39,198 nucleotides of DNA, from positions 1 through 39,198 of the IMG/VR virus record IMGVR_UViG_3300045988_156947; one strand, given 5' to 3'. This document shows positions 1-39,198 of the stretch, one piece after another. Within the stretch, counting starts at the first letter, position 1. Every line of letters starts with the position of its first letter. Both the position numbers and the translations under genes were made by a program. The stretch is from a virus. A model generated the notes under the pieces. That model did not search any database, had not been told where the DNA came from, and was given only the letters and a program-made list of their open reading frames with translations.

Positions 1-286
1 GCTGTTGCCATACGCCAAAACGCTGCTGTTGTCATACGCCAAAACGCTGCTGTTGTCATTCACCAAAACGCTGCTGTTGTCATACGCCAAAACGCTGCTG
101 TTGTCATACGCCAAAACGCTGCTGTTGCCATACGCCGAAACGCTGCTGTTGCCATTCGCCGAAACGCTGCTGTTGCCATACGCCGAAACGCTGCTGTTGC
201 CATACGCCGAAACGCTGCTGTTGTCATACGCCAAAACGCTGCTGTTGTCATTCGCCAAAACGCTGCTGTTGTCATACGCCAAAACG
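1..286. repeat. Tandem 24-nt coding repeat, about 12 units (left part of one array)
   Basis: Unit on + strand is GCTGCTGTTG[T/C]CAT[A/T]CGCC[A/G]AAAC, repeated head to tail from position 1 to about 286. Confidence 0.95.
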
Positions 287-417
287 GGGTATTTAAAGCG
301 TCTGTTCAGCACCGCGCGGTTATTCGGTGTGCCAAACTTAATTATCACCCTGCCGTTATAGTCCGCGCTCACAGCGTCAAGCTCTGCTTGCGTTGTGCAA
401 ATTATCTCGTTCATCAT
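1..417 (-). CDS. Octapeptide-repeat protein, N-terminal part (ATG at 417; ORF leaves the window at position 1 and continues at 39198)
   Basis: Reverse strand reads MMNEIICTTQAELDAVSADYNGRVIIKFGTPNNRAVLNRRFKYPVL, then AYDNSSVL-type octads with no stop before the edge. Frame is continuous with 38344..39198. The track shows no ORF in this frame here; the listed 5..361 (+) and 60..275 (-) ORFs are other frames of the repeat. Confidence 0.75.
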   Translation of the reverse strand, partial: MMNEIICTTQAELDAVSADYNGRVIIKFGTPNNRAVLNRRFKYPVLAYDNSSVLANDNSSVLAYDNSSVSAYGNSSVSAYGNSSVSANGNSSVSAYGNSSVLAYDNSSVLAYDNSSVLVNDNSSVLAYDNSSVLAYGNS

Positions 418-420
418 TTG

Positions 421-1296
421 TCATTCCCCTTTTACTTTCCGATAGATTTCTTCGAGGTTTTTTAGATTCGCCTCAGTATACACAGTCTGGCGCCCGCATG
501 TACCCTGCGTTTCCTCCGCGCTCAGGAGAGCATCCTCCCAGCATCGCGCCTTGAGCCATCGCGCGGGAGCGGGAATGAACCGCCCTCGCTCCTTCTGCCA
601 CTGTGCGGAGGCTTTCTGTTCTTCGAGCGCCTTGAGCATTGCGTCGAGATCAACGGTACCGAGCTTTTCAAAAGCCCGCTTCGCCTCGTCCTTGTAGACC
701 TGTCTCGGATAAGCATTCCAAAACATATCAAACTTGTCACTCACACAGTGCGCCTCGCGCGCACACGCGGTGTGTGTGTCTACGATAGTAGATACACACT
801 TTACTTTGCTTTCCTTTACTATACTTTCCTTTACTTTACTTTGTTCGTTTCTGCTTGCATTTTCCGAGAAAATGTTGACATAAACGCGGTTGATGTTGAC
901 ACGACTCGAAAAATTGGTAGCATCCACTAAGAGTATGTTGTAATCGACATCAACAACCTTGCGTCGGGACGCAACCCCGAAATACCTTTTTTGTATACCC
1001 CTGGAGGTGAGCACATGGTATTTCTCATAAATGTCTTTGTCGAACATACCCCGCCGAATCGAAGCCGCTATTACCTGTGAAACGACGCCCGCACCCTCGC
1101 CAATCTTCCGCGAGAACAAGAGCGCAACCTCACTATCCCATTCAATGTAGTATCCCGCTTTGCCGTATATCTCTTGGAGCAAGTGCACCACTATACCAAA
1201 GCCAACTACCCCGAATTCTGCTTCTATCAGCTCCATCTTAGAGTCGAGACTAACATCGAGCGGAAAGTATGAAATGCCGCTTCGGTTAATCTCCAT
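421..1296 (-). CDS. Replisome organiser / replication initiator
   Basis: N-terminus YFPLDVSLDSKMELIEAEFGVVGFGIVVHLLQEIYGKAGYYIEWD fits the DUF4373 (Lin1244/Lin1753-like) pattern. C-terminus FDMFWNAYPRQVYKDEAKRAFEKL...WQKERGRFIPAPARWLKARCWED fits the phage replisome-organiser/DnaD-like tail. Family names are from memory. Confidence 0.8.
   Translation of the reverse strand: MEINRSGISYFPLDVSLDSKMELIEAEFGVVGFGIVVHLLQEIYGKAGYYIEWDSEVALLFSRKIGEGAGVVSQVIAASIRRGMFDKDIYEKYHVLTSRGIQKRYFGVASRRKVVDVDYNILLVDATNFSSRVNINRVYVNIFSENASRNEQSKVKESIVKESKVKCVSTIVDTHTACAREAHCVSDKFDMFWNAYPRQVYKDEAKRAFEKLGTVDLDAMLKALEEQKASAQWQKERGRFIPAPARWLKARCWEDALLSAEETQGTCGRQTVYTEANLKNLEEIYRKVKGE
809..901. repeat. Direct repeats in the AT-richer linker of the replication gene: candidate origin iterons
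   Basis: CTTTCCTTTACT at 809-820 and 824-835. ATGTTGACA at 872-880 and 893-901, spaced 21 nt. Confidence 0.3.
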
Positions 1297-5253: not shown

Positions 5254-6351
5254 ATGAAATGCCCGAATTGCAAGAGCGAGCTGCCCGACGAGCTGCATTT
5301 TATATACTGCGGCTACTGCGGCGCACGGCTCGTCCGCGAGAAACAAAAGAAGAACGATATAAGGATACCCTCGCCGAGAAAGCGCGGGCAAAGGTGGTAT
5401 ATAGATTTGCGGCGCGAGGGTGTGACGGTCATTGAGGACACCGAAGCCGAAGCAATAGCAAAAGCAAAAGCCATTCGCGCGGGCTTTATTAAAGCCGAGC
5501 AGAAGCACCCACCGCTGACGCTGCGGCAAGCGATAGATAAATATATAAGCGACCGCGACAACGCCCTCTCGCCCGCCACCATACGCGGCTACTACACTAT
5601 CCAGCGCAACGCCTTTGCCGATGTGATGGACCATGATATCCACGAGGTCGGCAACTGGCAGGCAGTCGTTAACCGTGAAGCAGGGCGCGTTTCGGCAAAA
5701 ACCTTGCAGAACGAATGGCGGCTTGTAAAAACGGTGTTGCAGAAAAACAAAATTGATTTCGATGTCACATCGCTGCCTCAGGTGATACGCAACGAATTAC
5801 CATGGCTTGATTATGGTCAGATAAAGATATTCCTCGAAGCCGTGCACGGCGCCCCTTGTGAGCTGGGGGCATTGTTCGCGCTTCACGGTCTGCGGCGTTC
5901 CGAACTCCTTGCATTAACACCGGATAAAATACAAGATGGGCGAATATTGGTTTATGGTAGTGCAGTTGTTGACAAAACCGGAAAGCTCGTTATCAAGTCC
6001 GAAAACAAGAACATTACTTCGCGGCGCGAAGTTGACATTATGATACCGCGGCTTGCCGAACTGCTTGCTGAGAGCACTACGCCACCGGGCACGCCGTATA
6101 TCCCGTTCAATCACAATACACTGCGCAAACAAATAAACCGCATTTGCGAACAAAACGGGCTGCCGCTGGTCGGCGTTCACGGTCTGCGGCGCAGCTTTGC
6201 GTCACTGGCATATCATCTCGGTTGGTCGGAACGCCAAACCATGAAAACAGGCGGCTGGGCAGATTTCAAAACCGTGCACAACATTTATGTGAAGCTTGCC
6301 GATGCCGATGAAAAAAGCGATATAAACCGCATGAAGGCGTTCTTCAATTGA
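5254..6351 (+). CDS. int: Tyrosine integrase with N-terminal zinc ribbon
   Basis: GGGAGATAAAA RBS. MKCPNCKSELPDELHFIYCGYCGARL zinc ribbon. Catalytic-type motifs LHGLRRSELLAL, VHGLRRSFASLAY, GGW...HNIYVK. Confidence 0.9.
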   Translation: MKCPNCKSELPDELHFIYCGYCGARLVREKQKKNDIRIPSPRKRGQRWYIDLRREGVTVIEDTEAEAIAKAKAIRAGFIKAEQKHPPLTLRQAIDKYISDRDNALSPATIRGYYTIQRNAFADVMDHDIHEVGNWQAVVNREAGRVSAKTLQNEWRLVKTVLQKNKIDFDVTSLPQVIRNELPWLDYGQIKIFLEAVHGAPCELGALFALHGLRRSELLALTPDKIQDGRILVYGSAVVDKTGKLVIKSENKNITSRREVDIMIPRLAELLAESTTPPGTPYIPFNHNTLRKQINRICEQNGLPLVGVHGLRRSFASLAYHLGWSERQTMKTGGWADFKTVHNIYVKLADADEKSDINRMKAFFN

Positions 6352-6585: not shown

Positions 6586-6626
6586 TTTACGCAATTTTAC
6601 GACAGATTTACGACAACTTTACGACA
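6586..6626 (+). repeat. Four phased TTTACG(A)CA repeats (candidate arm-type sites, right arm)
   Basis: TTTACGCAA at 6586-6594. TTTACGACA at 6596-6604, 6607-6615 and 6618-6626. Spacing is 10-11 nt. Confidence 0.5.
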
Positions 6627-6846
6627 ACTCGCCGTAGAGAGCCGCGCGAGCCGCCCTCCATTCCTCGGTAAGGTCGGGTACAGGCTTGCCCTCCATCTCA
6701 AGAATGCTACGAAGATTTTTTGCGTGCTGCATTTCCTCTCCGGCAATATCCTTGAGCATAGAGCCGTATTCGCTGTGCCGTGCCATATCGCTATACTTTA
6801 CGACATCTTGCAGTTCGTCAGCGAGCGAAGCAGTTATATTATCCAT
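6619..6846 (-). CDS. Hypothetical 75-aa helical protein (contains EEMQHAKNL, an ExxH-type motif)
   Basis: AGGAGG RBS before ATG 6846. Last gene before the terminator and attP. Confidence 0.6.
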   Translation of the reverse strand: MDNITASLADELQDVVKYSDMARHSEYGSMLKDIAGEEMQHAKNLRSILEMEGKPVPDLTEEWRAARAALYGELS

Positions 6847-8171: not shown

Positions 8172-11100
8172 TTATTTTTTGTAAAGCGAGTAATAAAGCG
8201 CGTTCTTCTGCTCGGTCGTAAGGGACTTGAGAGAGTAGATGTACCGCTGTACTCTCTTTTTCTTCAAGCCCGAAACGGTCTTTCCGCTTGCGTCCTTGCC
8301 GCTTGCATTATTGTAGAACTCGTAGACATCGAGCGTGACGGTGTCGGGTACTTTCACGCGCTGCGCTCTTTCGAGCATATCGCCGAGCTGACAATTGCCG
8401 TTCTCCGTGGTCATGTATTCGCGCACCTTTTCGACAAGCTTCTTGCCCGAGTAGCCGCCGCCAATCAAACCGCGCACCTTTTCGGCGTTGCTGAAATTGC
8501 CGTTGCCGTCGGTGTCGGCAGATTGCAGATATTGCGAGTCAAGGAAATACTCAGCAGTCTTGCGGGGGTTGTTCTCAGCGAGTTTTATCCACGAACTAAC
8601 ATTCGCTTCTTCGCCCCTGCCGACGATGCCACGAGATTTAAGGAATTCCATCTTTGCCTCAGTGCGAGACGCCTTCGCAAGGTCAGCCAAAGCGTCAGCC
8701 TTTTGGTCGGCGCTCAAATTACTATATGCGGAGCTGTTCATGAATTGTGAATACAGTTCCTCGGTACGCTTGCCCGCCGTCCGCAAATACTGTTGCCGCT
8801 CCTCATAAGTCATGGCGTATGAGCTGCCGCCATAGTCGATTTTTGTCGGAGCGGTTTTGTCAGGGTACATATCAACTCGTGATGTCTCGTTTTTAATGCG
8901 TTCCATCTCCTTGCTGACATCGCGCTTGGTGTAGGTGTTTAACCCAGCGGGGTTTACCATGGCGTTTAATACGTTGGAGAGCGTAGAGCCTCCATACTTC
9001 TTCTCATCGCCGAATGGATCAAGTTTGACCGGCAACGTTTCTCTGAGCCCTGGCAGTGAATTCTTCGCGTTGTCCATGAGGTTTTCGCCGAGGCTGTCAC
9101 CTGAATACACATCTCTGTAATATGGGTCTATGCCTCTTGCGAGCTGCCGGAAAACATTCGGGATGACCGAGCTCGTTGCGGTCTTTACAAACATTTCGGC
9201 GAGAGCTTCGCCGAAGTCCTGCTTATACTTAATCGTGTTGACAGCAAGCGTCTGTATATTCTGAATAACGGGCAGCTCTGCGGCGCTTTCAAGCAGCGCA
9301 TTGAACGAGGCGGATGCCTTGTCGCCGAACGTTGTGTCTTCGTCCCACGTTGACACGATAGTGCCGAGCGCCATGATGGAGTTCACCGGCTCAAAGCGGG
9401 ATAGATCGAGCAGTTCGTCGCCGTTCCTCCACTCCGTACTCTCTCCGGCAAGAGCCCTCGACAGTGCAGATATATTTAGCTGTGTACCGGCGATGCCCTC
9501 GGCAGCGTTAAGTGCGGCAATATCGGGGTCGTTCTCGTCATCAGCCCTGCGCAGCAAGCCCGCTGCGGATATTGCGGCAAATAGGGCTATCCCCGCAGTG
9601 CCTGTCGCGCCGCGCCCCATGTGCTGTACTGCCTGGGCCTGTCTGCTGTGGTTTGGTTTCCCGCTCCTTTTCGCGTTATACACAACGCTGCACGCTTCGG
9701 CAAAGCCTCTCGCAAAGCCGATAGGAGTATAGTCTACTGCCGTTGATACGAGGTTTCCCGCAACTCTGGTAAACGGCGCAACCATGTCGCCAACGCCAAA
9801 GGAGCCGACCTTATAGTCTTTTTCCCTGCCCTTAATACGCTTGCCGCTGTCGCCCACGCCGATAACATTAAGCCCATCATGTACTCCGCCCAGCATTGTT
9901 GCGAGCCATGAGTCATTTTGAAATGTGCGATATTTAGCTATCTTATCGGCGTAATTTTCGGCATAATCCGCATCGGCGTCTACAACCTTGCCTTCGGCAA
10001 TAAGCCGCTCCATAGCCGCTTTGTGTCTCCCACTGGCAAAACCTTTTGCGATTTCGTCAGGCAATACCATGCCGTACTTCTGATTTCGCTCGAGGACGTG
10101 CAAAACGCGGTCAAATATATTGCCGTTAGCTTTAAATGTGTACCCTGTGTTTTGATATCGGCTATCTGCGCCCATGTCTACATCAAGAGCTATCTCCGCT
10201 ATCGTTCTGTTCAATGCCGTCCGCGCGGCTTTCCATCCCTCGGCATCAAATATGCCCTTGTCCGCGGCTACGCTTCGCGTGCCGGTCATGCTGCTCATAA
10301 TTTGGTCGGCGAGCGCCGAGCCGTTCATTGCAACAGTGTCAATAACAGAGAACACAGAGTTGCCGGAAACGTTCACGAGCTTCGTTTTCGGGTTAGACAG
10401 CATCGCAAGCATTTGGATGCACTTCATCTTTTTGCCCACATCGGCAGAATATACTTGATCGTTCCCGACCTGAGCAAGGGAGTTGTACGCGAGCGCCTGC
10501 AAATCCTCGCCGCTGAGAGCGTTGAGCGATTTTTCAACCATCGACCTCGTGATTTCTGCGCGCTTGCTCCGAATGGTCGCCCAGTTGAGCACCCCGCGCT
10601 GTTCCCCTATTTCCATTATGGTGCGCGTCAGGTCTAAACGCCCTTGTTCGGTGTTCGGGTTCGAGTTTTCAAGAAGTGCTTGCCATCTGACAACCTGTCG
10701 TACCGCGTCATAGCGCTCCTGTTCGCTAAGGTTTTCGTTTTCGATTATGGCGCTAAGAGCTGTATCGCCCGCCGCCGCTCCCGAGTCCTCGCTTTCACGC
10801 GTCCACTTCGCAAGCGATTGTATGACCTGTCCGGCATTGGTCATATGTGCAGCCTTCGTATGTGCGATAAGAGCCCTCGTCTCGGCAAGCTCGTTGTACT
10901 CGCTTATGCTCATATTCGGGTCGTTGAGCCCATCTTCAAGTTGCCGCGTTATCTCTCTCGTAGCAATTTCGGCAAGGTCGGTATCCTCCGCTGTCCACTC
11001 CTGTTTTTCAAGGAGCCATTCCGTAACGGCGCTTATTCCGTCCTCTTGCGTCAGTTGGTCGAACAAAGACTGTGCGCGGCTCTGCGTTGTACCTTCGTGC

Positions 11101-13205
11101 TTGACTTCGTACTGGAAATAAGGGTTATCTGCCTCCATTCCGTAGTCGGCGACACTCTCAGGGTCATATGAGCGCTCAATGGTATTTGAGCGATAGCGCG
11201 ACGTATTGAGCTCGCGGTTTTCCGTAAATCCGAGCTCTGCCGCGCCTGTGCCCTTGGGGAGATTGGATTGCTCTGCTTCAAGCGCCGTAGTCAAAGTTTG
11301 TTCGTTGCGGGGGTTGACATCAGCAGTCTCCTGTGATACAGTGTTACTAACAGCAACCCTCGCTGCGTGTCCGGGCGTGACGCTTGGGGCATTATTGCCA
11401 TAGGCGGACGAGGGGGCTGTTTTTTTTGCGCCATTTTTCGACATATAGGCAGAAACTATGTAGGTCGTTTTCTTTGCGGTATCCGGCACGGCTTCAATTA
11501 CATAGTATGTGCCGTTCACGGCTTTTTCAAATACTACGGTGCGAGCCCTTCCGTGCTTCCCGTTTGGCTTAACAGTCACATACGCCTTTGTCGTCCCGCC
11601 GTCCTTTGACGAGTCGTAATTGTCAATGACCCACTGTATGCGTCCAATATCATTTATATCGCGCATAGTTTGATCTGCGAGCCCGTTCTCCCCGTGGTCT
11701 TTGAGGATATGAGCCACCTGCCGAGCTTCAATGACGGTTTTATTGCCGGAAACATCCACGCCCGTGATACGCTTAATGTCCTTCGCCGCTCGGTCTGATA
11801 CTGGTTTCAGTTCATATCGGGCGTTTTGTTTTGTTATCCGTTTTGATGCTACGTCACTAACGAATTTCGTAAGCCCCTCGTCAACGGCTGACTGATATTC
11901 GTCTATCACCCTTTGCTCAACTGCGGTGTGTTCGCTCGGGTTAGTGTTGACGACAGTGCTCTCATCCTGCCCCGCTGTATCGCTGCGTGTGCCGCTCTCT
12001 GCGGCTACCATGTCCGCTATTACTCTTGAAGCGCTGCGCCGTCTTGGCTTGGTCTCTCGCTCTCGTTCTTCCTGCCGCTGCTGTGCGTTCTCTGCCTTGT
12101 ACTGTCCGCTTATAACATTTGTTCCAGCTCCGACAAGACCGAGCGCCGCGCCGATAATGTAGTCCTTTGCCATCTCCTCAGCGTCAAAGTCGTTGCCAAT
12201 GGTAGACCAGTCACCATTGCCGTCGTCGAGCTTGAGTATTCTGTCTGCTATCGGGTTGAGAATATCCGAAAGGACTTCCTCCAAGCCTTCCTCGTTCGCA
12301 CCCACGATAACCTTGAGCGCTGTTCTGCCGGCGTCCGTTTTCGCAAGCTTGTTTACTATTCCGTTTACAAGACTTTCATTGCGAATAATCCCCTTGCCAT
12401 AAGCAACGTGCGAAACCGCGCCGAAGAGTTTTTCGGTCATTATTTCTATCGCCGCGCTTTTAAGACCGGTGACGAGCTGAGTATCTAAGTCTTTTCCCGC
12501 AAGCCTCGCCTCATGCGACGCACCACCGGCTGCACGAGCGCCCATCATTGCAAGACCGCTGCCGGGAAGAACGGCGTTCATGACAGCATCGCCGGCAAAC
12601 TGCGTTGCGGCGATCCCGAAGTCTACCATGCCCTGACCGAATTTGCCGAGTCCCGCCTTTGCGCTCTGCTCATAATCATAGGCGGTCTGCTGCAATCTGT
12701 CTGCTCTGTCAAAGGCTTTCTGTCCCGCTCCGGCAAGCTTTACCGCGCGTTCGTCAAAGTCTTTTCGGCTGTCCTCGCTCTGCTTCTTAAGACCGCCCTC
12801 GCGTGTGTTGATGTCCTCGCCCTGCAACGAAGCCTCGCGCCCCGCTCTGAGCCTTGCACTGTCTGCCTCGTCTCTTGCTCTGGTCTGCGCGTCCTTCTCA
12901 TCGAGCAGACCAAACAGGTTTGATAACGACGCTCCCGCACCGTATATAGCCGCGTTAACGGTTTTGTCAAAGCGTGTGGGATTAGACGCGCCGTAGTCTC
13001 CCGCGCCCATTGCGTTTATCTGACCGGGCTTGCGCTCCTCCTCTTTCTTTTTGCCGTTCGTGAGCGAGCCGTAGTTGAATGTAACATCCGCGGCTTTGCT
13101 TTTGCCTGTGCCCTTGACAAGTACGGCGTGACCGTTGGCATCGACCGCGGGCTTAGTATCGCCTATCTCCTTGCGCACATCGGCTATAATTTTATCAACA
13201 TTCAT
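8172..13205 (-). CDS. Giant 1677-aa virion-associated (internal/ejected, polyvalent-type) protein
   Basis: Uninterrupted ORF with a GAGG RBS, coupled to the upstream gene. Gly-rich hydrophobic segments near the N-terminus. Embedded HILKDHG nuclease-like module. Long helical region. EF-hand-like loop DTDGNGNFSNAE. Confidence 0.85.
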   Translation of the reverse strand: MNVDKIIADVRKEIGDTKPAVDANGHAVLVKGTGKSKAADVTFNYGSLTNGKKKEEERKPGQINAMGAGDYGASNPTRFDKTVNAAIYGAGASLSNLFGLLDEKDAQTRARDEADSARLRAGREASLQGEDINTREGGLKKQSEDSRKDFDERAVKLAGAGQKAFDRADRLQQTAYDYEQSAKAGLGKFGQGMVDFGIAATQFAGDAVMNAVLPGSGLAMMGARAAGGASHEARLAGKDLDTQLVTGLKSAAIEIMTEKLFGAVSHVAYGKGIIRNESLVNGIVNKLAKTDAGRTALKVIVGANEEGLEEVLSDILNPIADRILKLDDGNGDWSTIGNDFDAEEMAKDYIIGAALGLVGAGTNVISGQYKAENAQQRQEERERETKPRRRSASRVIADMVAAESGTRSDTAGQDESTVVNTNPSEHTAVEQRVIDEYQSAVDEGLTKFVSDVASKRITKQNARYELKPVSDRAAKDIKRITGVDVSGNKTVIEARQVAHILKDHGENGLADQTMRDINDIGRIQWVIDNYDSSKDGGTTKAYVTVKPNGKHGRARTVVFEKAVNGTYYVIEAVPDTAKKTTYIVSAYMSKNGAKKTAPSSAYGNNAPSVTPGHAARVAVSNTVSQETADVNPRNEQTLTTALEAEQSNLPKGTGAAELGFTENRELNTSRYRSNTIERSYDPESVADYGMEADNPYFQYEVKHEGTTQSRAQSLFDQLTQEDGISAVTEWLLEKQEWTAEDTDLAEIATREITRQLEDGLNDPNMSISEYNELAETRALIAHTKAAHMTNAGQVIQSLAKWTRESEDSGAAAGDTALSAIIENENLSEQERYDAVRQVVRWQALLENSNPNTEQGRLDLTRTIMEIGEQRGVLNWATIRSKRAEITRSMVEKSLNALSGEDLQALAYNSLAQVGNDQVYSADVGKKMKCIQMLAMLSNPKTKLVNVSGNSVFSVIDTVAMNGSALADQIMSSMTGTRSVAADKGIFDAEGWKAARTALNRTIAEIALDVDMGADSRYQNTGYTFKANGNIFDRVLHVLERNQKYGMVLPDEIAKGFASGRHKAAMERLIAEGKVVDADADYAENYADKIAKYRTFQNDSWLATMLGGVHDGLNVIGVGDSGKRIKGREKDYKVGSFGVGDMVAPFTRVAGNLVSTAVDYTPIGFARGFAEACSVVYNAKRSGKPNHSRQAQAVQHMGRGATGTAGIALFAAISAAGLLRRADDENDPDIAALNAAEGIAGTQLNISALSRALAGESTEWRNGDELLDLSRFEPVNSIMALGTIVSTWDEDTTFGDKASASFNALLESAAELPVIQNIQTLAVNTIKYKQDFGEALAEMFVKTATSSVIPNVFRQLARGIDPYYRDVYSGDSLGENLMDNAKNSLPGLRETLPVKLDPFGDEKKYGGSTLSNVLNAMVNPAGLNTYTKRDVSKEMERIKNETSRVDMYPDKTAPTKIDYGGSSYAMTYEERQQYLRTAGKRTEELYSQFMNSSAYSNLSADQKADALADLAKASRTEAKMEFLKSRGIVGRGEEANVSSWIKLAENNPRKTAEYFLDSQYLQSADTDGNGNFSNAEKVRGLIGGGYSGKKLVEKVREYMTTENGNCQLGDMLERAQRVKVPDTVTLDVYEFYNNASGKDASGKTVSGLKKKRVQRYIYSLKSLTTEQKNALYYSLYKK

Positions 13206-32163: not shown

Positions 32164-32805
32164 TTAAAGCTCGTAGGTAACTACGGGCTTTTCTTCCTTT
32201 TCGGCGCCGTAAGTGTCGCGCACCTCGTCGGCAGTCTGTAAGCCCATCAGCAGGTCAGGGCAAAATACGCGGGCAAAGAATGTTGCCGCTCGGTACTGCA
32301 ACATCTGCTGCGGCATCGTTTTCCACTTTGAGCCGTTTTTGTCTATCCAGCCCTCGGCCTTTGCCATCTGCATGGTGATCTTGGTGCCGGTGCAGAGTTT
32401 GCCGTCGGAAATCCGCGTTGCCTGTGCATAGCAGCTCGCTTGCTCTGCTCCTTCTCCGCCGAAAAAAAATTCAAGCGGCGAGAAGCGCCCCGAGCCGTTT
32501 ATTTGCGAAATGCAAAATTGCCCCGACCATGCCGGCTTGCCCTTGACAATGTAAAGCTGCTGTGCAATGAGCATCGGAGAGATGTTCATTCGCATAGAGA
32601 GATCAAGCGCAATGAGCACATTCTCGGGCTTGTTGCGGTATGTGTCCGGCAGAAGGTCGCTCTTTGAGAGCATCGTCGCCGTTCTCCATGCCGCGTTCAT
32701 GCTCTTTGCGTCCGTCCACATCATCGGCGCTTTGCCCTGCTGCACCGCCACGACCGCTGTTGTCTGCTGCTCCTGAGTGTTTTCCTGTTTCGTCGTTTCG
32801 TCCAT
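32164..32805 (-). CDS. recT: RecT-family single-strand annealing protein
   Basis: LSKSDLLPDTYRNKPENVLIALDLSMRMNISPM...IVKGKPAWSGQ...MAKAEGW...SKWKTMPQQMLQYRAATFFARVFCPD. Confidence 0.85.
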   Translation of the reverse strand: MDETTKQENTQEQQTTAVVAVQQGKAPMMWTDAKSMNAAWRTATMLSKSDLLPDTYRNKPENVLIALDLSMRMNISPMLIAQQLYIVKGKPAWSGQFCISQINGSGRFSPLEFFFGGEGAEQASCYAQATRISDGKLCTGTKITMQMAKAEGWIDKNGSKWKTMPQQMLQYRAATFFARVFCPDLLMGLQTADEVRDTYGAEKEEKPVVTYEL

Positions 32806-32809
32806 TTTT

Positions 32810-32959
32810 TCAGCTCTCCTTTATGTCGTTTTTCGTTACGCCCCAGCCGCAGTAATGCCGCCGATTTCTTCGGGCTGCGTAGGCGCAGACCTTGCGTCCC
32901 ACGCACTCCGAGCAGACTATTGTTTTTTTCTTGAGCTTATCGTATTCCTCTTTAGTCAT
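32810..32959 (-). CDS. 49-aa Cys-rich mini-protein (MTKEEYDKLKKKTIVCSECVGRKVCAYAARRNRRHYCGWG...)
   Basis: ATGACTAA overlap with the exonuclease stop. Its stop lies in the recT RBS region. Below the track cutoff. Confidence 0.45.
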   Translation of the reverse strand: MTKEEYDKLKKKTIVCSECVGRKVCAYAARRNRRHYCGWGVTKNDIKES

Positions 32960-33569
32960 CGGCTTCCTCCTCGGTCTTTTTCCGCTTTCGCGGCGTGATT
33001 TTCAGTGCGTGATGCATGATTACGCAGCTCTCCGCAAGCTTATCCATCGACACAAGCTTGTGCAACTTGTATGTGCCGTCCTTTTTGAGCTGCAAAATCA
33101 CGAGCTGTTTTATGTCCTCGTCGGGAAACATCTTGCGGTAAAGCGTCAGACACACGCTGTAAAGCGTTCTGTGCCGCTTTGATATGCTCTGCGTAGTTTT
33201 TATGTCGAGCAGCGTCGGAACGCCGTCAACGCATCCTAAGCGGTCTATCGTGCCCGCGTAGCGCTTCGCGGGTTCGTAGCTCTGCCGCTCGATGTACTTC
33301 CATTCACACTCATGCTCCTTGCGGAAAGCCACATAAGCCTTGATGTACGGCTCTATGTCCTCTGATATCTCCACCTTGCCGTACTTGTCGAGCACCTCCG
33401 TCGCCTTGTGCACTGCCGTCCCCCGCTCAGCGGCTCGATCGAGGTTGAATTGTCCGATATCGCCGTATATCTCGCGGGAGATAAAGCGCGTTACCTCCGA
33501 CACACTCGGCAGCTCCTCGCCGTCGAGTGTATAGCGGTGCTCCGTATCAAAAAACAGCAGTTTAGCCAT
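32952..33569 (-). CDS. PD-(D/E)xK exonuclease (partner of RecT)
   Basis: FFDTEHRYTL...LPSVSEV, GTAVHKA, AGTIDRLG...TLLDIKTT motifs. Confidence 0.75.
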   Translation of the reverse strand: MAKLLFFDTEHRYTLDGEELPSVSEVTRFISREIYGDIGQFNLDRAAERGTAVHKATEVLDKYGKVEISEDIEPYIKAYVAFRKEHECEWKYIERQSYEPAKRYAGTIDRLGCVDGVPTLLDIKTTQSISKRHRTLYSVCLTLYRKMFPDEDIKQLVILQLKKDGTYKLHKLVSMDKLAESCVIMHHALKITPRKRKKTEEEADD

Positions 33570-35986: not shown

Positions 35987-36643
35987 TTATCCCCACTGGT
36001 CAGCCATTGCTTTGGCTATGCCGGGGAAGGTTTTGCTTCTGATTTTTGCCGTGCGAGGATCATTCCATCGCAGGATCTTGCCTCGCTCATCTCTTGCACA
36101 ATCCGCGCCTGCTCCGACGCTGTATCCCCCCTGCAAAATCTCTCCAGCATCCACAATGTTGGTCGGGGACAAAGCAGGGAGCCCTTTAAGCCACAGACAA
36201 GTCTTTTTCCTGGCATTATGCCCAAACTCATACGGCTGGATAATGCAATCCGGTTTTCGGTAGTACGATGACATTTTGCCTACTGGATTTTCGACGCAGA
36301 TTTTTGGGATATCTGCTTCTGCAAAATGGAGGAAAAACGCCGCGCTCTCAAACCGCAAATATAGCGGTTTCCGCCCCTCCGAAAACCATCTCTCGCCGGA
36401 CGCTGCCAAATGCGTGCACGGCGGGTGAGCTATCAGCATATCCCACTTGCCCACATCATGCTCAACGCCGTCCATGGTAATAATTACCCCCCCATTCAGG
36501 GCAACGAGCGCATCGCCGAGTATGTGCCACTCAGGATGCCCGCCCGACGGCTCGATTATGTCGCAGCTGTACGCCTCGTGCCCCTTTGCGCGGAAAGCCT
36601 TGCACACAGTCTGGCTCTCCTCACAGGCTATCAGAACTTTCAT
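35987..36643 (-). CDS. Cytosine-5 DNA methyltransferase-like protein
   Basis: IAHPPCTHLA (PC motif IV) and CVENPVG (ENV-type motif VI). N-terminus MKVLIACEESQ replaces the canonical FxGxG. Confidence 0.55.
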   Translation of the reverse strand: MKVLIACEESQTVCKAFRAKGHEAYSCDIIEPSGGHPEWHILGDALVALNGGVIITMDGVEHDVGKWDMLIAHPPCTHLAASGERWFSEGRKPLYLRFESAAFFLHFAEADIPKICVENPVGKMSSYYRKPDCIIQPYEFGHNARKKTCLWLKGLPALSPTNIVDAGEILQGGYSVGAGADCARDERGKILRWNDPRTAKIRSKTFPGIAKAMADQWG

Positions 36644-36677
36644 GCAGTATGTCCTCCATTCAAAAATCTCCCTTAAA

Positions 36678-37376
36678 CTAATTGATCCACCTAATCACGG
36701 TCTCGCCGGTATACCCCTTCTGCCAGACAAACCACGCATAAGCCACCGCAGATCCGCCACCGGCTTTCATCTTCTCGAAATCGCCGTTTTTCGCGCACAG
36801 CAGCCTGCCGGATGCTACATACACGCACTTGGGGGGATATTTCTCAAACAGTGCCCTGCGAGCTTTGCCCTCAAGGAATTGCAGTTTAAGAAACATGCAC
36901 ACCTTGCAGCCATCAGCCACCGTGTCTATTGCGTGCTCCACAAACTCTTTGGCGTACTTGTAGGGCGGGTTGGTGACTATATCGCCGTGAAAATGTACGT
37001 TTTCCTTGAGGAAATCGACACCTCCACAGCCATAGCCCCGATCTATCAGGTCGGTTGCTTTAACGATGTGCCCGCGCTTGCGGAGCACTTCGGCAAGATG
37101 CCCTTCACCGCAGGCGCACTCCCATATAGCGGGTGAGAGGCTTTCGACTTCACAGAGTAGTTCGGCGGCTTTAGGCTCGGTCGCATAATAGTCATGGGCC
37201 TCCCGTTCGTTTTCTGTATGGTTGGAGGCTCCGAGGGTCTTGTAGATGCTGTTGCCGTTGCCTATCCAATCCGCAGGCTTCACACTCAATACACCCCCCT
37301 GAACACATTCTCCGAGCCGTTGCCGGTAAAACCACAGATACCCACTTACGTAACTCCCTTCATAAAGCAGCCCCAA
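36678..37376 (-). CDS. N6-adenine DNA methyltransferase (NPPY)
   Basis: WECACGEGHL (SAM-binding-like) and IVTNPPYKYAKEF. The start is uncertain; it overlaps the upstream gene by 31 nt. Confidence 0.7.
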   Translation of the reverse strand: MGLLYEGSYVSGYLWFYRQRLGECVQGGVLSVKPADWIGNGNSIYKTLGASNHTENEREAHDYYATEPKAAELLCEVESLSPAIWECACGEGHLAEVLRKRGHIVKATDLIDRGYGCGGVDFLKENVHFHGDIVTNPPYKYAKEFVEHAIDTVADGCKVCMFLKLQFLEGKARRALFEKYPPKCVYVASGRLLCAKNGDFEKMKAGGGSAVAYAWFVWQKGYTGETVIRWIN

Positions 37377-37843
37377 AAGGTTTTTGATTTTTTGCCGCTA
37401 TGATGCCCGAATAGCGGTTTTCGCCCGATTGCTCGCCATAGTTTATCCGCGGGGATCTGTGTTTCCGACCACTTGAATATCAGCACGCCATCTGGTTTTA
37501 ATACACGCATACACTCCGTGAAACCTTTTTGAATTGTCTGTTCCCAACCTTGATCGAGCTTGCCGTACTTTTTAACCATCCACGAATTATCCCCAGCGCG
37601 TATTAAATGCGGCGGATCAAAAACTACAAGTGAGAAACTGTTGTCGTCGAAGGGTAGGCAAGTAAAATCACACTGAATATCAGGATGTACATAGCACGTT
37701 CTTTCACTAAGCCCGTTTGTGCTTTTCCATATCCCTGTTAATGCTTCATCCCGTTTATCGCAATAAATCGCATTAGGATGATTTTTGTTAAACCACATTG
37801 TGCGAGATCCACACGTTACATCAAGTATCTTTTTGTTGGACAT
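37346..37843 (-). CDS. SAM-dependent (DNA) methyltransferase with DPPH motif
   Basis: ILDVTCGSRTMWF (motif I), VVFDPPH (motif IV), RVLKPDGVLIFKW. Confidence 0.65.
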   Translation of the reverse strand: MSNKKILDVTCGSRTMWFNKNHPNAIYCDKRDEALTGIWKSTNGLSERTCYVHPDIQCDFTCLPFDDNSFSLVVFDPPHLIRAGDNSWMVKKYGKLDQGWEQTIQKGFTECMRVLKPDGVLIFKWSETQIPADKLWRAIGRKPLFGHHSGKKSKTFWGCFMKGVT

Positions 37844-38347
37844 TCAGTACGCCTCCCGAAAGTGATTTGTCTCCCCATCGCCGGTGAACCAGCAGTATGT
37901 ATCAGGCAGCTCCCTTGTAACCGCCGCGCCCTGCTTCTCCATGCTCCAGCGCGTGAGCACATCGAGCGCCACCGCACGAAGCTCGTCCCACACAGGAAAG
38001 TGCGGACTGTAGCCGTAAAACTGCCCCGACTGGCTCACTACGCCGACGATGGTCTCGGGGAAACGCGGATCGTCCACGCGATTGAGCACGCACCACACGC
38101 ACTTGCGCTGATTGTCCACCGTGCACCCTCTCGCCTCGCCGTATAGCATCTGCGCGAGCGCCGTGACATCAGCCTCGGTAAAATACAGCTCGTATTCAGG
38201 CTCTTTCACCTCCACCACGCAAAGCCCCTTTGTGTCCACCTTCGGCGGCTCAGGCTCGGCGGGCTTGTCCAGCGCACAGCTTATCAGCACAAGTAGCGCC
38301 ACGATTGTCATGCACAAAAACGCTGCCATGATTTCAAATCTCCTCAT
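37844..38347 (-). CDS. SleB/CwlJ-type cell wall hydrolase with lipoprotein-type signal peptide
   Basis: IVALLVLISCALD lipobox. LAQMLYGEARGCTVDNQRKCVWCVLNRVDDPRFPETIVGVVSQSGQF fits the Hydrolase_2 pattern. The start may be ATG 38329. Confidence 0.75.
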   Translation of the reverse strand: MRRFEIMAAFLCMTIVALLVLISCALDKPAEPEPPKVDTKGLCVVEVKEPEYELYFTEADVTALAQMLYGEARGCTVDNQRKCVWCVLNRVDDPRFPETIVGVVSQSGQFYGYSPHFPVWDELRAVALDVLTRWSMEKQGAAVTRELPDTYCWFTGDGETNHFREAY

Positions 38348-39198
38348 GCCTTAGCCCGCCTTTTCGCAATCATTTTGCCTTGCAGCCCGCATTCTTCGAG
38401 CGGTACTTCGCGCAGCACCTTCGCTTTGCGCGCCCTAACTTTGCCCTCGCTGCGCAAAGGCACGAGCACATCGGCTTTTTTGCATTCGAGCTCGAGAATC
38501 GCAACATCATCCCAGTTTGCGCCATCCGCAAGCGCCCATGCCTTGTGCGCAAGATGGATACCGGCGCCGCAGCTATGCAGTGCGTCCTCGTCAAAGCCGT
38601 TGCGGGGTGTAACAATGGCGCCTATATCGTAGATAAAACTGCCCCAGTAGTCGGCGTGATATGCGTCGTTGTAGAAATGCACCGCTTTATACAGTTTTAC
38701 CGTCGCATCAGTCGCATCAAGCCCGTGAAAGTCTATATATTCCTCTATGTTCGTCGGATTATAAACTATGCGAGCATTGCCGCTTACTTTGATATTGTTG
38801 CTCTGCGTATTGTCCACGATTTGGCTGTTGCCATTCGCCGAAACGCTGCTGTTGCCATACGCCAAAACGCTGCTATTGCCATACGCCGAAACGCTGCTGT
38901 TGTCATTCGCCAAAACGCTGCTGTTGTCATTCGCCAAAACGCTGCTGTTGCCATTCGCCGAAACGCTGCTGTAATCATTCGCCGAAACGCTGCTGTTGTC
39001 ATACGCCAAAACGCTGCTGTTGCCATACGCCAAAACGCTGCTGTTGTCATACGCCGAAACGCTGCTGTTGCCATACGCCAAAACGCTGCTGTTGTCATAC
39101 GCCAAAACGCTGCTGTTGTCATTCACCAAAACGCTGCTGTTGTCATACGCCAAAACGCTGCTGTTGTCATACGCCAAAACGCTGCTGTTGCCATACGC
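38344..39198 (-). CDS. Octapeptide-repeat protein, C-terminal part (continuation of 1..417)
   Basis: Open to the window edge. About 15.5 octads, then a globular domain KLYKAVHFYNDAYHADYWGSFIYDIGAIVTP...HSCGAGIHLAHKAWALADG... Confidence 0.8.
   Translation of the reverse strand, partial: AYGNSSVLAYDNSSVLAYDNSSVLVNDNSSVLAYDNSSVLAYGNSSVSAYDNSSVLAYGNSSVLAYDNSSVSANDYSSVSANGNSSVLANDNSSVLANDNSSVSAYGNSSVLAYGNSSVSANGNSQIVDNTQSNNIKVSGNARIVYNPTNIEEYIDFHGLDATDATVKLYKAVHFYNDAYHADYWGSFIYDIGAIVTPRNGFDEDALHSCGAGIHLAHKAWALADGANWDDVAILELECKKADVLVPLRSEGKVRARKAKVLREVPLEECGLQGKMIAKRRAKA
38824..39198. repeat. Tandem 24-nt coding repeat, about 15.5 units (right part of the same array)
   Basis: Same unit as at 1-286. 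Degenerate octad periodicity continues to about 38770. Confidence 0.95.

Follow-up and report, generated by a model that had tools for sequence, protein, structure and literature searches.

A phage octapeptide-array gene with a predicted beta-solenoid and a C-terminal domain remotely related to T4 RIIB

The 39,198-nt virus record IMGVR_UViG_3300045988_156947 of IMG/VR, referred to here in its whole length as the window, carries a minus-strand gene that is split across its two ends and in which tandem 24-nt units encode an array of octapeptides between a short head and a C-terminal domain. We favour, with moderate confidence, a reading in which this early phage gene joins a solenoid of adjustable length and surface to a RIIB-like working module, the protein serving as a cytoplasmic host-interaction or anti-defence factor. 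The case is built on the confinement of variation to three positions of the octad, on differences in unit number between close relatives, on a structural model, and on the remote homology that links the tail with the C-terminal domain of T4 RIIB.

Organisation of the array gene and its family

With the overlap between the window ends removed, the gene runs from 417 to 1 and then from 39063 to 38344 on the minus strand and encodes 378 aa, which comprise, in order, a 44-aa head, a partial octad (VLAYD), 21 full octads, three degenerate octads and a 137-aa tail. Its parts are as follows.

286..417, minus strand: start and 44-aa head MMNEIICTTQAELDAVSADYNGRVIIKFGTPNNRAVLNRRFKYP, from the translation; ATG at 417-415, second ATG at 414-412
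1..285, minus strand: 5' part of the array, VLAYD and the first 11.25 full NSSVxAxx units (Tandem Repeats Finder, period 24)
39064..39198, no strand given: terminal 135-nt copy, an exact match to 1-135
38830..39063, minus strand: 3' part of the array, with the other 9.75 full units after removal of the terminal duplicate (Tandem Repeats Finder)
38758..38829, minus strand: three degenerate octads, NSQIVDNT QSNNIKVS GNARIVYN, the transition from the solenoid to the C-terminal domain
38344..38757, minus strand: C-terminal domain, residues 242-378, and TGA (38346-38344); DUF7666/DUF5758-like and RIIB-C-terminus-like

The original prediction, made from the letters of the window, had described this layout, and the translation agrees with it in the 44-aa head, the NSSV[L/S]A[Y/N][D/G] octads, the degenerate octads (three) and the tail (137 aa); the plus-strand unit likewise reads GCTGCTGTTG[T/C]CAT[A/T]CGCC[A/G]AAAC as it was first written. 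The head is conserved in 80 full-length relatives, and in the degenerate octads G234, N235, R237 and V239 are invariant in the family.

A word-indexed search with the tail returned 342 relatives, and an exhaustive profile search gave 2,430 clusters (50% identity) at E<=1e-3, many of the proteins being 300-620 aa long. Most of the relatives belong to phages or prophage regions of gut Clostridia; among GTDB genomes, 39 loci were found, almost entirely in metagenome-assembled genomes (MAGs) of gut Clostridia, Oscillospiraceae, Lachnospiraceae and Ruminococcus among them. Similar phage proteins had originally been mentioned, and they do exist, as ThetaBob gp59 and as UOF77773.1 of MW202485. The array module is also found in other company: the 1,485-aa relative P0227 holds three head-plus-octad-array modules without the RIIB-like domain, set between ArdC-N and NT5C domains on one side and DUF3991 and Toprim domains on the other, and the module is therefore used independently, in a protein with an anti-restriction-type ArdC-N domain.

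Window ends and unit number

Tandem Repeats Finder places two 24-nt arrays in the window, one at 1-286 (11.9 copies, 95% matches) and one at 38824-39198 (15.6 copies, 92% matches). Since the last 135 nt, 39064-39198, are an exact copy of 1-135, and this overlap lies wholly within the array, the 27.5 copies count 5.6 units twice; removing the overlap leaves a circle of 39,063 bp with 21 full NSSVxAxx octads and the partial first one (VLAYD). The array that was first reported is real, but its count of about 27 units took in the overlap twice. When the ends are joined with the overlap kept, the reading frame is maintained but the 8-residue register is broken, ..YGNS running into AYGNSS... The 135-mer is present only at the two window ends and the longest exact repeat inside the array is 47 nt, which makes closure of a circle the simplest reading; every 48-mer of the circularised array is unique, and the assembled unit order is therefore self-consistent.

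The 135-nt copy is either such an overlap left by circularisation or a second true copy within a higher-order repeat of that block. Because the array, at 526 nt, makes up only about 1.3% of the 39-kb circle as a target for a random cut, the array itself probably ended the contig. The break could be caused by length variants within the sample; it could also come from a true duplication of the 135-nt block, the units that separate the two copies having stayed unassembled. On either account the assembled length would be wrong, both contig ends having stopped in the array at a branch of the assembly graph, and this we regard as a serious possibility, somewhat short of an even chance. A value of 135 is not known to be a default maximum k of common assemblers. 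Relatives behave in the same way: 4 of the 7 IMG/VR loci end inside the array, an open reading frame (ORF) reaches the contig edge within the array in 10 of 35 MAG loci (L019, L020, L022, L024, L026, L028, L030, L031, L032 and L045), and runs of N interrupt it in four more (L036, L037, L040 and L044). One IMG/VR relative, L001, is 99.4% identical to the window in its flanks yet holds about 3 units in place of 21, at a coverage of 1.1x. Higher-order duplications, moreover, exist in the family: in UOF77773.1 (MW202485; L010, 2749-3918) the array of about 24 octads holds a duplication of about 8 or more units, so block duplications occur besides single-unit changes. What speaks for the assembled length, apart from the uniqueness of the 135-mer and the 47-nt limit on internal repeats, is that complete arrays of 18-23 units lie inside long contigs and that deposited phage genomes carry 16-24 units; and an error here would touch the unit number only and not the nature of the feature.

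Octad arrays, then, systematically break or gap short-read assemblies, and the early warning that assembly may have altered this one was justified, both by the overlap inside the array and by the relatives' arrays that end or are gapped there. The array is real, and its 21 units are to be taken as the assembled minimum. Such arrays can also create apparent terminal repeats, which may be mistaken for proof of a complete viral genome.

Length change within the family

The head-to-tail spacing changes in 8-aa steps with the register kept in 75 of 81 full-length proteins (the 80 relatives and the window protein), and the longest complete arrays have 23 octads in the MAG loci, with about 24 in MW202485, a deposited genome. 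One comparison is that of loci L005 and L006, with 8 and 15 units and near-identical flanks (98.7-99.95% in adjoining blocks); whole-unit deletions explain their difference, and units are therefore gained and lost in 24-nt steps, with point changes shuffled among them. These comparisons, and that of L001 with the window, are between short-read assemblies, and proof at the level of isolates comes only from the Bordetella phages BPP-1, BMP-1 and BIP-1, whose VR2 array is annotated in GenBank as 330, 498 and 474 nt respectively; the unit numbers (24 bp each) found among the three isolates are, in ascending order, 14, 20 and 21. The length variability that had been anticipated is accordingly seen in all three sets: 8 and 15 units, about 3 and 21 units, and the VR2 lengths.

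The octads are predicted to form a beta-solenoid

The full-length AlphaFold2 (AF2) model, computed with an 85-sequence alignment, has a mean predicted local distance difference test score (pLDDT) of 87 and a strict 8-residue strand periodicity. A solenoid had been proposed from the letters, and structure prediction, now run for head, repeats and tail, agrees with high confidence: each octad is modelled as one 4-residue strand (S-V-x-A) and one 4-residue turn (x-x-N-S), the head (pLDDT 93-96) as a cap and the tail as a globular domain, so that the octads are predicted to stack into a single-chain beta-solenoid with the 44-aa head as its putative N-terminal cap. In this arrangement V and A should point into the core and N and S should form corner ladders, while position 5 should face outward and positions 7 and 8 should lie in the turn; the alternation of residues along the strand thus suggests that the three variable residues of each octad are exposed. 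For the number of octads in a coil, three, or 24 residues, is our tentative value, weakly suggested by a faint lag signal over 39 arrays (position-7 matches have z +2.8 for a lag of 3 and -2.5 for a lag of 2) and by low-scoring similarity of the model to right-handed beta-helices.

Variation is confined to three positions of the octad

Over the 21 octads there are three common toggles, L/S (13:8), Y/N (13:8) and D/G (11:10), and four singletons, namely A to V, N to Y (TAC), and the synonymous GAC to GAT and AAC to AAT. The unit list of the deduplicated array matches the toggles as they were originally described; the further synonymous AAC/AAT change is also present, but at about 38876 and not at 38885. 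Seven of the eight possible three-site haplotypes occur in the window array. The same confinement holds in the window, in six IMG/VR relatives analysed by codon and in 35 MAG loci analysed by protein: N, S, S, V and A are fixed, and only positions 5, 7 and 8 vary, with different residue sets in different lineages.

Octad position 5: L/S, V/E, T/S/W
Octad position 7: Y/N, W/R, H/C/Y/Q/R/M
Octad position 8: D/G/E

The seven haplotypes and the restriction to these three positions, with exposure as predicted by the model, fit the combinatorial surface residues envisaged at the outset.

The DNA units are near-identical in the window and in the six related IMG/VR arrays. Within all seven of these arrays, nonsynonymous variation (pN) at codons 5, 7 and 8 is 0.21-0.41 against synonymous variation (pS) of 0-0.125, values that rest on about two synonymous sites per unit and on arrays that are related to one another. 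At codons 1-4 and 6 there is no variation in four arrays, and in the window, L003 and L004 it is low and consists mostly of serine-codon switches. The excess of pN over pS at the three codons points to diversifying pressure on exposed residues. In the window alone, three nonsynonymous toggles would be unremarkable, as about three quarters of random changes are nonsynonymous; the pattern gains its significance only from the recurrence of variation at these three codons in all relatives examined.

The same variation could arise without any role in recognition, the array being a spacer or structural rod whose toggles are neutral or structural (in stacking or solubility, for example) and are shuffled by unit recombination. 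There is something to be said for this, as each lineage mostly has two residues per position, one nucleotide change apart, the arrays are homogenised within a lineage in the pattern of concerted evolution, and the weak lag-3 periodicity of position-7 matches (z +2.8) suggests stacking between successive coils. Neutral change should, however, give a ratio near 1, whereas pN exceeds pS in all seven arrays, and the residue sets at positions 5 and 7 differ widely between lineages; we consider this account unlikely, though not negligibly so.

The possibility of a diversity-generating retroelement target was rejected. The unit core occurs nowhere in the window outside the array, so that there is no template repeat, and on the coding strand the changes (T/C, T/A and A/G) are not adenine-specific. 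No reverse transcriptase was found among the ORFs scanned, a scan that took in part of the ORFs only.

The C-terminal domain resembles DUF7666/DUF5758 and, remotely, RIIB

A profile search of the C-terminal part, which had been put forward as a check, suggests that the tail belongs to the DUF7666/DUF5758 superfamily and gives a remote link to RIIB. The window protein itself scores 16.5-16.7 bits on DUF5758 (PF19062; cut-off 26.9) and has no match to DUF7666 (PF24703); its sub-threshold Pfam matches are Phage_L5_gp82 (PF25735; 22.2 bits, cut-off 27), Gp5_trimer_C and DUF5758. Relatives at 49-53% identity pass the cut-offs (P0119 with 28.9 on DUF7666, P0118 with 27.8 on DUF5758), and when 58 family members are scanned with Pfam at E<=1, 56 match DUF5758 and 36 match DUF7666. 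The window protein also has a match to PHROG 15773, with E 1e-19. The superfamily core motifs YKAV..., C-G-x-G-[IL]-H and GKVR are all present in the tail, here as CGxGIH and GKVRA..KVLREVPLEE, and the domain ends in a basic helix; in alignment A1, A266, H268, Y274, G307, E330, E332, G346 and R349 are invariant and C304, G305, I308 and H309 nearly so.

The link to RIIB comes from profiles and from the model. PHROGs annotated as RIIB lysis inhibitor match weakly (PHROG 609 at E 0.0014, PHROG 36818 at E 0.018), and hhalign aligns the family profile with residues 195-307 of T4 RIIB over 108 columns (probability 83.6%, E 8e-6), an alignment that takes in the C-x-x-G-[IL]-H motif; a C-G-x-G-[IL]-H-type motif is common to ThetaBob gp59, MW202485, Bbp36 of BPP-1 and T4 RIIB. 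The C-terminal domain modelled alone has a pLDDT of 89.6 and a predicted TM-score (pTM) of 0.82. In a Foldseek search of BFVD with the full model, 28 matches reach E<=1e-3, each with probability 1.00, over 108-149 aligned columns (about 120 typically) and with a root-mean-square deviation of 2.4-5.5 Å, mostly 2.4-3.3 Å. Among those with a description, about half are RIIB or rIIB-like proteins or their equivalents from T4-like, N4-like and other phages, the RIIB proteins scoring E 4e-6 to 7e-4 with probability 1.00, and DUF7666 proteins of phages and giant viruses lie just under the threshold at E 0.0075-0.015. By sequence profile and by model, the tail is a remote homologue of the T4 RIIB C-terminal domain.

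Beyond the region aligned with T4 RIIB, residues 365-377 (about 38347-38385, minus strand) form a conserved basic C-terminal helix (G..GK.IAKRR), which may be a membrane- or nucleic-acid-binding tail.

Searches for a known function gave nothing further. A sequence-profile search of the PDB with alignment A1 returned nothing at E<=1, and a fold search of the PDB with the full and domain-only models returned no significant match. Against PADLOC-DB 2.0, neither the window protein nor its downstream neighbour nor any of three fusion relatives had a match at E<=0.01, and a literature search on DUF7666, DUF5758 and Phage_L5_gp82 found no papers.

Genomic context

The locus belongs to the early region of a temperate siphovirus-like genome, with the integrase and a repressor-like regulator on the other strand. 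The neighbouring genes of the same leftward block are these.

421..1296, minus strand: replication initiator (Lin1244_N), upstream in the same operon (PHROG 2562, E 2.6e-45; Pfam PF14297, E 3e-25)
37844..38347, minus strand: 167-aa protein with a SleB-type hydrolase domain, downstream (Pfam Hydrolase_2, 30 bits; PHROG 30550, E 2.7e-41)
35987-37843, minus strand: three DNA methyltransferase genes in succession, starting two genes downstream (PHROGs 954, 799 and 757)

An AAAGGGG Shine-Dalgarno sequence lies 8 nt upstream of the array gene start, within the end of the upstream gene, and the array gene is translationally coupled to that replication-initiator gene; its TGA overlaps the ATG of the 167-aa protein (ATGA). 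Early expression, as originally supposed, fits this position and these couplings. The methyltransferase trio suggests an anti-restriction block, and RecT and an exonuclease are encoded further along the block.

Ahead of the Hydrolase_2 domain, the 167-aa protein carries a hydrophobic N-terminal stretch with a lipobox-like LISC. A gene for a hydrolase-like protein, 61-83% identical to the window's by tblastn, directly follows the array gene in L002-L008 and L012, and L001 ends 48 codons into it; an obligate pairing of the two is nevertheless not borne out, as 38 more distant MAG loci do not keep it.

In three unrelated phages, an exonuclease and a single-strand annealing protein are encoded as a pair within a few kb of the array gene, these being the window (32164-33569, minus strand), MW202485 and BPP-1 (L010, 90-1943; L051, 14131-16108); it may promote recombination between units, or may be a mere shared early module.

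Three further observations concern the rest of the window. ACTTT pentamers, in nine copies (or as a 15-nt unit), occupy 798-842 within the replication-initiator gene (421-1296, minus strand) and may be origin iterons. Close behind the integrase gene (5254-6351, plus strand) lie four copies of an 11-nt repeat (TTTACGACAAC; 6586-6629), which are possible arm-type or operator sites. A 1,677-aa ORF at 8172-13205 (minus strand) has no PHROG match but does match PBECR3 (Barnase/EndoU/ColicinE5-D/RelE-like nuclease; Pfam E 2.6e-12), and domains of the PBECR type are found in the large 'polyvalent' proteins that phages and conjugative elements encode.

A putative anti-defence factor with an adjustable surface

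We envision that units, which share up to 47 nt of exact identity, would be gained and lost by slippage or unequal recombination, a process that the phage's own RecT and exonuclease may promote, and that point changes at the three exposed codons would then be shuffled among units. The protein would act early, in the cytoplasm, as a host-interaction or anti-defence factor. Its RIIB-like domain would be the conserved working module, carried on a solenoid platform that can vary in length and surface and is under diversifying pressure; that pressure may come from the binding of changing host targets, or from evasion of host sensors that recognise RIIB-like proteins. An anti-defence role had been among the first suggestions, and it is supported only indirectly, by the remote homology between the tail and T4 RIIB.

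A bolder version would make the octad solenoid a programmable recognition surface with three hypervariable residues per unit, reading out or evading a variable host partner, for which a RexAB-like abortive-infection system or sensors of RIIB-like proteins are candidates; unit recombination, perhaps promoted by RecT and exonuclease, would then supply new lengths and surfaces on short time scales. We hold this version to be improbable. If true, an intracellular anti-defence effector would have its variation driven by recombination, and the action of the RIIB C-terminal domain could be approached by experiment. The rII proteins have had an open mechanism for decades, and RIIB has recently been shown to be both an anti-defence factor and a defence trigger (PMC10312443, PMC13001434).

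Several points weigh against the reading of the protein as an early RIIB-like factor on a variable solenoid. The window protein's own Pfam scores are under the curated cut-offs, and T4 RIIB itself has no Pfam DUF7666 match, so the relationship is remote. T4 RIIB has an N-terminal helix-turn-helix, whereas the window protein lacks one and has a different head and the octad array; RIIA is the partner of RIIB, and a scan of 24 window ORFs with PHROGs or Pfam turned up no rIIA-like gene. On the side of the solenoid, residues 200-240 have few alignment rows over them and a pLDDT of only about 60, and the model is of a monomer, with which a trimeric intertwined helix is still compatible. The unit number is insecure, the small number of synonymous sites and the kinship of the arrays limit the pN/pS comparison, and two-state toggles could reflect structural needs and not target recognition.

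The RIIB-like working module can also be viewed in a wider frame. The RIIB C-terminal domain equates to DUF7666/DUF5758, which is joined to quite different scaffolds: an octad solenoid in gut Clostridia phages, mycobacteriophages and Bordetella phages and, in giant-virus proteins matched by Foldseek, repeats that the descriptions name as ankyrin or DUF4116. This variety suggests a portable effector module with exchangeable targeting parts.

Other roles considered

The octads might instead build a trimeric intertwined beta-helix like that of the T4 gp5 needle, in a virion fibre or spike. The C-terminal part of gp5 (gp5C) is indeed a beta-helix made of octapeptide repeats (PMC3004832), and there are weak matches to Gp5_trimer_C (PF22178; E 0.0028 for the window protein, 0.00058 for MW202485) and to PHROG 430, a baseplate hub (E 0.048). 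All scores are, however, far under the Pfam cut-off (18-20 bits, 18.3 for the window protein, against 30.9); gp5C, with its VxGxxxxx octads, is an intertwined trimer in the virion baseplate, whereas the window protein is confidently modelled as a single-chain solenoid monomer, and its gene lies in a replication and methylase block and not among structural genes, as do the homologues of BPP-1, ThetaBob and MW202485, which are likewise in early regions. We regard a virion role as very improbable.

A DNA mimic in the manner of MfpA and Qnr, blocking restriction or other DNA-binding enzymes, would suit a rod-shaped solenoid, as the model predicts, encoded in an early operon near three DNA methyltransferases. 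The pentapeptide-repeat proteins share with the window protein a short-period beta-solenoid with small hydrophobic residues inside, but they have a period of 5 and four faces and are acidic, whereas the period here is 8 and no Pfam match to the pentapeptide family (PF00805 and related) was found at E<=1 in the window protein or in 58 members. Acidity is modest, with a net charge of -12 over 173 array residues and an average of -0.43 per octad in homologues, and R and W lie on the surface in many relatives. Mimicry of this kind, one of the roles first floated, is thus weakly disfavoured by charge and, all points considered, looks slightly fainter still than a virion role.

The faintest prospect of all is that the C-terminal domain is an ADP-ribosyltransferase and the protein an enzymatic effector: the full model's top PDB match is the rifampin ADP-ribosyltransferase Arr (E 0.11, probability 0.80), the best domain-only matches are to CNFy (E 0.3-1.2, a fragment of domains 4-5 included), whose domain 4 we take to be ADP-ribosyltransferase-like, with Arr-2 at rank 31, and H268, Y274 and E330-x-E332 are invariant, but TM-scores are all below 0.4 (Arr 0.38, CNFy 0.33), E-values are all above 0.1 and for the domain-only model not below 0.3, no such Pfam family appears in the 58 members at E<=1, and the sequence-profile search of the PDB was empty, on which grounds this role was rejected.

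Comparison with known systems

A comparable phage repeat is that of mycobacteriophage Tweety gp54 (Pham et al. 2007), with 12-bp units encoding AA[GWQ][SY] tetrapeptide/octapeptide repeats, present in 48, 26 and 15 units in related phages; third codon positions are invariant while first and second positions vary, which its authors read as selection for variation (PMC2884959). The repeat is unrelated to that of the window protein, and disorder was suggested for it by the same authors, not a solenoid (PMC2884959).

T4 RIIB (NP_049889), of about 312 aa, has a remotely homologous C-terminal domain and is, like the window protein, an early non-structural phage protein; it carries its helix-turn-helix (HTH_7, HTH_28) at residues 7-50 and has no repeats. 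It is known to overcome RexAB-type abortive infection in T4 and T6 (PMC10312443), through a mechanism that awaits explanation; overexpression makes it toxic, and gasdermin/CARD-NLR and Tmn defence systems detect it (PMC10312443, PMC13001434). The DUF7666, DUF5758 and PHROG 15773 models, for their part, cover the globular domain only and not the octad array, and all are families of unassigned function.

The same architecture as that of the window protein is found in mycobacteriophage ThetaBob gp59, Squirty gp51 and Che8 gp59/60, with the Pfam family Phage_L5_gp82, and in UOF77773.1 of Podoviridae sp. ctHz2215, which have a short head, 16 to about 24 octads ([GDE]S[SA][RHS]V[EV]A[WRSC]) and a DUF7666 domain (46.7 bits in ThetaBob gp59), and lie in early regions. 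They are only 26-31% identical to it, their octad has an extra variable position before V, and their hosts are actinobacteria or unidentified.

The nearest parallel in behaviour is Bbp36 of BPP-1, whose VR2 is a 24-bp element repeated 9-20 times by isolate in the non-essential bbp36 gene (Liu et al. 2002/2004, cited in Pham et al. 2007, PMC2884959). Like the window protein, it joins a DUF7666(-like) domain to tandem 24-bp octapeptide units; its variation is confined as well, there to the last residues of each unit, and unit number differs between closely related phages in both cases. Both genes lie in early regions, and those of BPP-1 and MW202485 adjoin exonuclease and annealing-protein genes. 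In Bbp36, however, the order is reversed, an N-terminal DUF7666 domain (41.7 bits, above the cut-off) being followed by 13 GTATAG[YR/ES/EK] octads with no head domain; the octad motif, GTATAGxx, is unrelated to NSSVxAxx, hhalign aligns only the CGxGLH region of the two proteins (probability 10%), and the host of BPP-1 is a proteobacterium, unlike the mostly gut Clostridia of the window relatives. Because Bbp36 already joins DUF7666 to a length-variable 24-bp array, the kind of protein is one that has been described, though it is uncharacterised, and the window gene is a further member of it.

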